This document shows, one piece after another, positions 6,081 through 7,136 of a stretch of DNA of 37,836 nt. A program made the translations under genes and the position numbers. This stretch comes from a virus. Location: the UHGV virus genome UHGV-0166071; one strand, given 5' to 3'. How positions within the stretch are numbered: the stretch's first letter is position 1; every line of letters starts with the position of its first letter. The notes beneath the pieces were generated by a model. The model ran no database searches. It worked only from the letters and a program-made list of their open reading frames with translations, and was not told the origin of the DNA.

Positions 6081-6104
6081 AGAAAACCCGGCGCTGAGGC
6101 CGGG
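6081..6104 (-). terminator. intrinsic terminator downstream of the peptidase gene
   Basis: Minus-strand CCCGGC-ctcagc-GCCGGG hairpin followed by TTTTCT, about 30 nt after the stop at 6135. Confidence 0.6.
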
Positions 6105-6134
6105 TTGTGAGGAATTAATTACAGAGCAAAGAGA

Positions 6135-7136
6135 TCATGCATTAGGTTGCTGTTCATCTGGTGGTTGAATTGATACGGCTCCAATTCCTTCTTGATCTCG
6201 TTCAGGTGTTGTTCCGCTTTTTTTGCCAGATCGTGACCTTCTTGGATCTGGCTTTCCAACATCTTGTTGAGAATTTCCATCTCCGGTTGCAGATTCTTCG
6301 GCATTAGCTTTTTCCTCTTTTTGTAGATACGTTGTACAATCAATAACCCTCGGCTTTCCAAATGTTGGAATGTCACCATTATGAATTTTGTCACAGAAAA
6401 GATTATAGAGTATTTCTGTTATACCTTTAGGATGCTCAACACACTTGAAAAGTTCCTTGGCTTCTTTTCTGTCGATAACAAATCCATGTGAAGGATATGA
6501 GGCTATTAGTTTGCCTAACGCCCCTTCTTTTAGGCTGCTTGGTTTGTCTGCTAATCGTTGGCCATAAGTGATAGCTATACTCATTGCGCGCTGATGTTCA
6601 CCAAGCTTTATTGGATCTATCTGTGCGGCCATAGGTGCTATCAACGCTTCTGTAAGTCTGGTCGCGATATCAGCAGACATTTTGGTACTTATCTGATTTT
6701 CGTATCTTATCTTAACAAGGTGTGAGTTAAACGCTGAAATAGAGCGTTCCTTTAGAGCATCAAGAGCTGTCATGATAGCTAAACCAGAACTCATCTCACC
6801 TATTTCATCGTTTTTTTTCAGTTGGATATCTAATGGCCCAAGCTCCCCCATGTCACCAATAACAAGTTTATTGGCTGCTATAGCTATTAGTGTACCAGCA
6901 CTTTTGCATGGTCCAACAACTAAAAGTGTTACCGTTTCATAATGGTGCTGTAGAGCTCTACCTATACGATAACCTGCATTTGGATCACCGCCATAAGTAG
7001 CAACACAGAAGATAACATTCTCTTTTAATCCATGTTGTGACTTACGTTTCTTGATTTCATTGGTGAGATCAAGATAACCATCACGATGAATATCGCCTGT
7101 ATACACATAAACATCATGATTTTCAATAGAATTCAT
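6135..7136 (-). CDS. ClpP/S49-fold serine peptidase-like protein (SDH-type), 333 aa
   Basis: Motifs VATYGGDPNAGYRIGRALQ and VVGPCKSAGTLIAIAANKLVIGDMGELGPLDIQ resemble the nucleophile region of ClpP/SppA-type peptidases; A/T-rich third codon positions throughout; occupies the rexAB slot between pL and the repressor gene. Confidence 0.65.
   Translation of the reverse strand: MNSIENHDVYVYTGDIHRDGYLDLTNEIKKRKSQHGLKENVIFCVATYGGDPNAGYRIGRALQHHYETVTLLVVGPCKSAGTLIAIAANKLVIGDMGELGPLDIQLKKNDEIGEMSSGLAIMTALDALKERSISAFNSHLVKIRYENQISTKMSADIATRLTEALIAPMAAQIDPIKLGEHQRAMSIAITYGQRLADKPSSLKEGALGKLIASYPSHGFVIDRKEAKELFKCVEHPKGITEILYNLFCDKIHNGDIPTFGKPRVIDCTTYLQKEEKANAEESATGDGNSQQDVGKPDPRRSRSGKKSGTTPERDQEGIGAVSIQPPDEQQPNA

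Follow-up and report, generated by a model that had tools for sequence, protein, structure and literature searches.

The immunity region of UHGV virus genome UHGV-0166071, a stretch of 37,836 nucleotides that was analysed as a whole and that we will call the window, carries directly behind its cI-type repressor gene a single gene for a predicted ClpP-fold peptidase. Comparison with sister phages identifies this gene as horizontally swappable cargo (a "moron") that a lambdoid prophage carries between cI and oL. The coding sequence (6135..7136, minus strand) is an open reading frame (ORF) of 333 amino acids (aa) that starts with ATG, 8 nt downstream of an AGGGAG ribosome-binding site. As the initial annotation of this region had it, we are dealing with a single AT-rich gene, with a GC content of 0.398 versus 0.443 for cI and 0.496 for the whole window.

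A Swappable Gene Behind the Repressor

The repressor gene (7303..8007, minus strand; helix-turn-helix (HTH) plus Peptidase_S24, PF00717 E 3.8e-16; phrog_4 transcriptional repressor) is found immediately upstream of the peptidase gene, on the same strand and separated from it by 166 nt. On the other side lies the oL/pL region (5853..6028), with operator-like repeats AAATGATAAAT at 5858-5900 and 6015-6028 that are common to oR. In phage lambda it is rexAB that occupies the space between cI and oL and, since the peptidase gene lies between cI and oL in a lambdoid immunity region, its slot is exactly that of lambda rexAB. The layout thus confirms the position between pL/nutL and the repressor gene that had been proposed from the first reading of the sequence.

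When the window was compared by blastn with the phages mEp506 and AU5Stx1, the common sequence ended at 6107 and restarted only at 7251 (7251/7252), which sets the limits of the cargo at 6108..7250 and the mosaic joints at 6107/6108 and 7250/7251. The swappable cassette (GC 0.399) is therefore made up of the gene and its flanks, of 27 bp on the downstream and 114 bp on the upstream side, the latter being a cargo-specific 5' leader (7137..7250, minus strand) that includes the ribosome-binding site (AGGGAG at 7150..7145). Outside these limits, the cI-cro block has ~98% DNA identity to mEp506 and AU5Stx1, and the block 5619-6107 (~490 bp containing the terminator and oL/pL/nutL) is common to both at ~86%. 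The slot of mEp506, which has a nearly identical cI, is occupied (locus L004, 2756-3886) by a three-gene HicA/HicB/HicC toxin-antitoxin-chaperone cassette, and the same slot in AU5Stx1 holds a 47-aa ORF only. The intrinsic terminator of the leftward immunity transcript (6106..6085, minus strand; hairpin AACCCGGC-CTCAGC-GCCGGGTT followed by a T-run, from a terminator scan) had been considered the gene's own. This view had to be abandoned, because the terminator lies within the backbone (common sequence to 6107) that is shared with mEp506 and AU5Stx1, both of which carry other cargo.

The gene was detected in full length in 28 out of 5,426 complete E. coli genomes, with alleles that are 90-100% identical in DNA sequence. 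In E. coli WP4-S18-ESBL-08 a 100% identical peptidase is encoded 115 nt downstream of a different repressor (locus L100, 3129-4959), whose similarity to the cI of the window is a local match of 45 residues only and whose C-terminal sequence we take to be that of lambda cI. This locus also has a Cro/CI-family regulator and a lambda-type cII, so that here the peptidase gene replaces rexAB behind a lambda-type cI, in agreement with the slot assigned above. Of what would be expected of cargo in the cI-N hotspot, a position between cI and oL, the strand of cI, and presence/absence polymorphism on a conserved backbone were found. This slot is known as a hotspot of mosaicism, where the abortive-infection genes rexAB and bstA are located, and transcription in lysogeny is higher behind cI than in most other regions of a prophage (PMC8585504).

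A Borderline Member or Sister of the SDH-Type Proteinases

The protein is a clear member of PHROG 21683 (full-length match, E 8.1e-185, with residues 1-330 aligned to profile positions 1-336 of 337), a group for which the function is listed as unknown, and in RefSeq it goes by the name of "SDH family Clp fold serine proteinase." The profile signal of ClpP type is weak and limited to residues ~40-110. The best Pfam match was SDH_protease (PF01972), which covered residues 44-108 and, at 29.6 bits, stayed under its gathering score of 31.3; CLP_protease (PF00574) gave 19.0 bits (cut-off 20.2) and the NfeD1b_N profile 19 bits. From NCBIfam the best match was NF047768 Clp_like_SDH (36.7 bits, cut-off 250), and a ClpP-related head-maturation protease model gave 34.4 bits (cut-off 120). 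Peptidase_S49 produced no Pfam match even at E<=1. A precomputed PF01972 match is present in many of the homologues and, judging from these profiles, the protein is a borderline, distant member or a sister of the SDH-type family PF01972/NF047768. The profile searches thus bear out one half of the initial expectation of a ClpP/S49-type protein, with PF01972 and ClpP matched at levels below their cut-offs, and not the other, S49 being absent.

The fold was predicted with confidence and is of the alpha/beta ClpP type, with the putative nucleophile at a strand-to-helix elbow, so that the structure prediction did find the peptidase fold that had been expected. In a Foldseek search against viral models, giant-virus entries named "Serine dehydrogenase proteinase" came out on top, aligned over 232-284 columns. 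The candidate nucleophile that had been picked out by eye, the Ser in GPCKSAG, is S79 within the motif GPCKSAGTLIAIAA (residues 75-88), and this choice proved sound. In NfeD 1510-N its counterpart is the Ser of the AASAGT motif, the nucleophile Ser97, as aligned in PDB sequence and profile searches whose hits were sub-significant and useful only for the alignment of this Ser. In the E. coli ClpP precursor it is Ser111 (Ser97 in mature numbering) that is aligned with S79, in an hhalign comparison of the family with ClpP that aligned only columns 11-89, at a probability of 1%; the ClpP sequence used was checked to be identical to that of PDB 3mt6. Because this alignment is restricted to the N-terminal ~80 columns, it does not place D103 or H217 relative to ClpP.

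To these alignments we can add the conservation within the family, for which the query was aligned with 148 cluster representatives (n = 149) having no more than 50% mutual identity. The only strictly invariant polar residues (100% of the 149) were S79, D103, Q105, S117, and H217. K78, beside the nucleophile, is conserved in 98% and K108 in 87%. Two other residues were considered as catalytic base; H181 was rejected, being conserved in just 24 of the 149, and K108, the sole Lys candidate in the vicinity, was down-weighted given its 87%. The invariance of S79, D103, and H217 leads us to a candidate triad with S79 as nucleophile, most likely Ser-Asp-His in that order, which is the "SDH-type" order (the one that we assume for the SDH-type family) and neither the Ser-His-Asp of ClpP nor the Ser-Lys of SppA. 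Motifs and secondary-structure position suggest that D103 is placed where ClpP has His122 (GELGPLD vs VMIHQP) and H217 near ClpP Asp171 (SHGFVIDRKEA vs DRDRFLSAPEA).

The core of the protein comprises residues 1 to ~280, and its helical C-terminal part is specific to the PHROG 21683-type family. Residues 282-333 form a disordered, variable and acidic tail, and in every member the C-terminal 50-70 residues are of low complexity and variable. Near the C-terminus, a tail motif G-(A/T)-(L/I/V)-(P/S)-x-(Q/E)-x-P-D (window 6138-6180, residues ~319-333) is kept in the members from Enterobacterales and Bartonella, and could be a docking or self-cleavage site. No membrane segment was found, the maximum 19-residue Kyte-Doolittle hydropathy being 1.7, inside the core.

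These properties separate the protein from several families with which it could be confused. It does not belong to ClpP proper (MEROPS S14), as CLP_protease stays below its gathering score, there is no His ~25 residues after S79, and the invariant order S79, D103, H217 differs from the ClpP triad; no gene for a Clp ATPase partner was found near the peptidase gene. Nor does it belong with SppA and NfeD 1510-N (S49, Ser-Lys), lacking as it does an S49 match, a membrane segment and an invariant Lys base, and of the original label "ClpP/SppA-like" only the first part, the ClpP-type fold, can be retained. Unlike the phage prohead proteases related to ClpP and S49, the gene is located outside the head-gene module; a comparison with the head-maturation genes of the same phage found no kinship. 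The closest likeness is to the SDH-type proteinases, from which the RefSeq name is derived and with which our protein shares the ClpP fold and probably the sequence order of its invariant Ser, Asp, and His. The difference is that both curated cut-offs of that family were missed and that our protein has its own C-terminal helical part and disordered tail.

Relatives in Phages, Prophages and Chromosomes

The family is large. A protein collection clustered at 90% identity contained 1,574 homologues, and a profile search against all representatives of 50%-identity clusters retrieved 1,347 clusters at E<=1e-30, a number that rises to 3,023 at E<=1e-10. The best 150 representatives are about 300-400 aa long, with a few shorter ones, and are matched over nearly their whole length, with no domain fusions among them.

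Relatives were found on at least 100 IMG/VR contigs. Peptidase_S24 was detected in the adjacent upstream ORF in 29 of 63 non-identical IMG/VR loci, and among the 67 viral loci with enough sequence, 43 have a CI-like gene within 1.5 kb upstream, 42 of them on the same strand and with a median gap of 120 nt; the hidden Markov model behind this last count was iterated and may take in HTH-only repressors. Along similar lines, Rac-like prophages of Klebsiella (59% identity) and prophages of Bartonella (48%) carry the gene directly behind the repressor and on the same strand. The phage-borne relatives are therefore strongly linked to repressor genes by position. There are also phages with a different arrangement. 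In the Klebsiella phage ST13-OXA48phi12.4 (locus L001, 3818-5999) an 80%-identical homologue comes after a 71-aa ORF that overlaps its start, and these two genes diverge from a pair for an XRE regulator and an ImmA/IrrE metallopeptidase and are not located behind an S24 repressor. The Burkholderia phage vB_HM387, a P2-like Tigrvirus (locus L002, 4908-5978), has a 42%-identical homologue in a location other than the repressor-proximal one, beside the integrase at the genome end.

For chromosomal relatives, the 150 neighbours of the 29 closest loci included nine S24 domains and three integrases. Clustering of the neighbours of 76 genome loci revealed no recurrent partner gene, the recurrent sets being only a cyanobacterial synteny and the S24 repressors. 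In Mannheimia the gene is a lone insert between housekeeping genes and in Malonomonas it lies at the edge of a phage-like element. Plasmid carriage is nearly absent, with one relative on a 9.8-kb Methylovorus plasmid; two Proteus records labelled as plasmids are as large as a chromosome (~4 Mb).

A Possible Role in the Protection of the Lysogen

We turn now to what such a gene could do for the prophage or its host. Promoter and terminator scans detected no sigma-70-like promoter and no terminator in the 166 nt that separate cI from the gene. Together with the high transcription of this slot during lysogeny (PMC8585504), co-transcription with cI in the lysogen appears most likely. The gene would then be transcribed by read-through from the repressor promoters pRM/pRE, and the transcript would end at the shared terminator at 6085-6106. 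The product would be a cytoplasmic, stand-alone and presumably ATP-independent peptidase of ClpP fold, which, if active, might attack a superinfecting phage by cutting one of its proteins, or might cut a protein of the host in response to a sensed infection. The C-terminus of SppA is an autoinhibitory or self-processed segment, and the C-terminal tail of our protein may be one as well.

We tentatively favor, as one possibility among several, a lysogen-expressed accessory peptidase for prophage-borne protection, either by exclusion or by abortive infection, a reading to which both the repressor-linked cargo slot and the precedent of BstA point. With yet more caution, we propose that it might represent a new single-gene anti-phage system, in which a stand-alone Ser-Asp-His peptidase of ClpP fold is kept behind repressors across many bacterial lineages.

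BstA is the closest precedent, as it is also a single gene directly behind a prophage repressor. Its placement is conserved across diverse Gram-negative prophages, some copies are prophage-independent, and abortive-infection activity has been demonstrated for the BstA of prophage BTP1 and relatives (PMC8585504). The two proteins are, however, unrelated, no aba-like self-immunity element was identified at the peptidase locus, and of the two it is BstA alone whose activity has been demonstrated. The likeness to RexAB is also one of place, downstream of cI, upstream of oL and ahead of the immunity terminator, but there are two genes there versus one here, and RexAB is a sensor plus an ion channel and not a protease (PMC8585504). 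The initial annotation could not match a lone peptidase of this kind to any described system. For defence this still stands, as no family of PADLOC-DB v2.0.0 matched the peptidase at E<=1 (the RexA and RexB models may not be in that library), no published function of the family appeared in the literature searched, and neither the accession nor the name of the protein occurs in the DefensePredictor supplements. As a family it had been described, since both PHROG 21683 and the RefSeq name exist. The family, its name and the hotspot were thus already known, and what the present analysis adds are the repressor-linked distribution and the set S79/D103/H217.

Several of our own results weigh against a protective role. 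To the empty PADLOC-DB search, and to the fact that all Pfam and NCBIfam matches were under the curated cut-offs, have to be added the neighbourhoods in cellular genomes. In a sample of one genome per species only 6 of 74 upstream neighbours were S24 repressors, the others being diverse housekeeping genes. PADLOC, run on the 150 neighbours of the 29 chromosomal loci (with no control set), returned generic HTH, capH, and RmrA regulators and two methyltransferases; the same scan also gave two mad3 and two PycC-like cyclases. In 13 cyanobacterial loci (36-43% identity; Rivularia, Calothrix, Richelia, and others) the synteny is conserved, with a ~508-aa gene upstream and, on the opposite strand, one of ~320 aa downstream, a pattern that suggests that these copies are inherited vertically and serve the cell. 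Finally, conservation of the core is high, whereas the sensors of many defence proteins evolve fast.

Much of this would suit a peptidase of lysogenic conversion or host physiology that has no phage target and acts in protein or peptide turnover or in a stress response, the slot merely securing its expression. The housekeeping neighbours, the cyanobacterial synteny, the lack of a defence-island signal in that PADLOC scan and the very strong conservation of the core all speak for it, as does a family of such size (the 1,347 clusters at the stricter threshold), spread over many phyla and free of fusions among its best 150 representatives. Still, we consider it somewhat less likely than protection. 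The phage-borne copies have been placed again and again directly behind prophage repressors (the 43 of 67 viral loci above), the distribution in E. coli is patchy (28 of the 5,426 genomes), and the slot is otherwise taken by cargo such as RexAB, BstA, and the HicAB type.

The other alternative is that the protease belongs to the lysis-lysogeny circuitry itself, cutting the repressor, its autocleavage fragments, or CII, N, or O, and in this way tuning induction or immunity. The order repressor then protease on the same strand, which recurs with many unrelated CI-like repressors, would be explained by this, and peptidases of ImmA/IrrE type are found near some homologues. It also recalls the ImmR-ImmA operons, where the protease gene likewise follows that of the repressor; ImmA/IrrE proteins are M78 metallopeptidases required for induction. 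The peptidase gene differs from them in being dispensable cargo that is independent of the identity of the repressor. In fact, mEp506 and AU5Stx1, with cI DNA that is ~98% identical, have no peptidase gene, and the identical protease is found behind two heteroimmune repressors that share nothing more than the 45-residue local match. That one and the same cI can do without the gene, and one and the same protease go with heteroimmune repressors, weakens this explanation. Repressors of S24 type, to which the adjoining ones belong, cleave themselves, and many homologues have no repressor nearby, all of which makes a part in the circuitry improbable to us.

That the gene is a non-enzymatic or unexpressed passenger, i.e., a pseudo-protease or a silent remnant in a recombination hotspot, seems very improbable, for although curated protease models were matched only below their cut-offs and the promoter scan detected no promoter of its own, the ORF is intact with a good ribosome-binding site, the fold is confidently predicted, full-length alleles (90-100% identical) persist in 28 E. 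coli genomes and, above all, the invariance of the candidate catalytic residues S79, D103, and H217 in 149 diverse members contradicts an inert protein.

Other Features of the Immunity Region

The remaining elements of the region follow the order of a lambdoid phage. Leftwards, a pL-like promoter (TTGCCA-17-TAAAGT, 5882..5854, minus strand) was predicted by the promoter scan and, upstream of N, the sequence shows a boxB-like hairpin GCCCTGAAGAAGGGC (5798..5784, minus strand) that we take to be the counterpart of the lambda nutL boxB. N itself is at 5285..5611 (minus strand, PF11438 E 2e-26). The pL operon has, between cIII and N, a DUF2528 gene (4455-4823, minus strand, E 1.8e-47) and the antirestriction gene ral (5006-5206, minus strand, E 1.6e-48), and the Rfam element Lambda_thermo, the cIII thermoregulator (4337-4395, minus strand, 88.5 bits, E 1.8e-20), marks the 5' end of cIII. 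The Rfam scan gave no match in or near the peptidase gene. Rightwards, the oR/pRM/pR region (8032..8100) contains operator-like repeats at 8032-8094 that match those of oL, and is followed by a cro-like gene (8121..8354, plus strand, identified from its sequence) and by cII (8470..8751, plus strand, PF05269 E 7.6e-30).

Short ORFs of 91, 48, 40, 55, and 56 aa lie across the peptidase gene, in a different frame or on the opposite strand (6119-6394, minus; 6161-6942, plus), and are most likely shadow ORFs of this AT-rich gene.

Implications

About two thirds of the phage-borne copies of this family sit in the repressor slot, the same slot that has already given RexAB and BstA. As a candidate the gene is also a cheap one, with ~1 kb to be cloned, three obvious point mutants and natural comparators in the mEp506-type phages, which have the same cI. 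Should it prove protective, an ATP-independent peptidase of ClpP fold would bring a new effector chemistry, and a new type of single-gene effector, to prophage-encoded immunity; no defence effector before it would have used a ClpP-fold protease that is independent of an ATPase. Should it not, its role would be the first biological one assigned in a family with thousands of members that are now named by their fold only.

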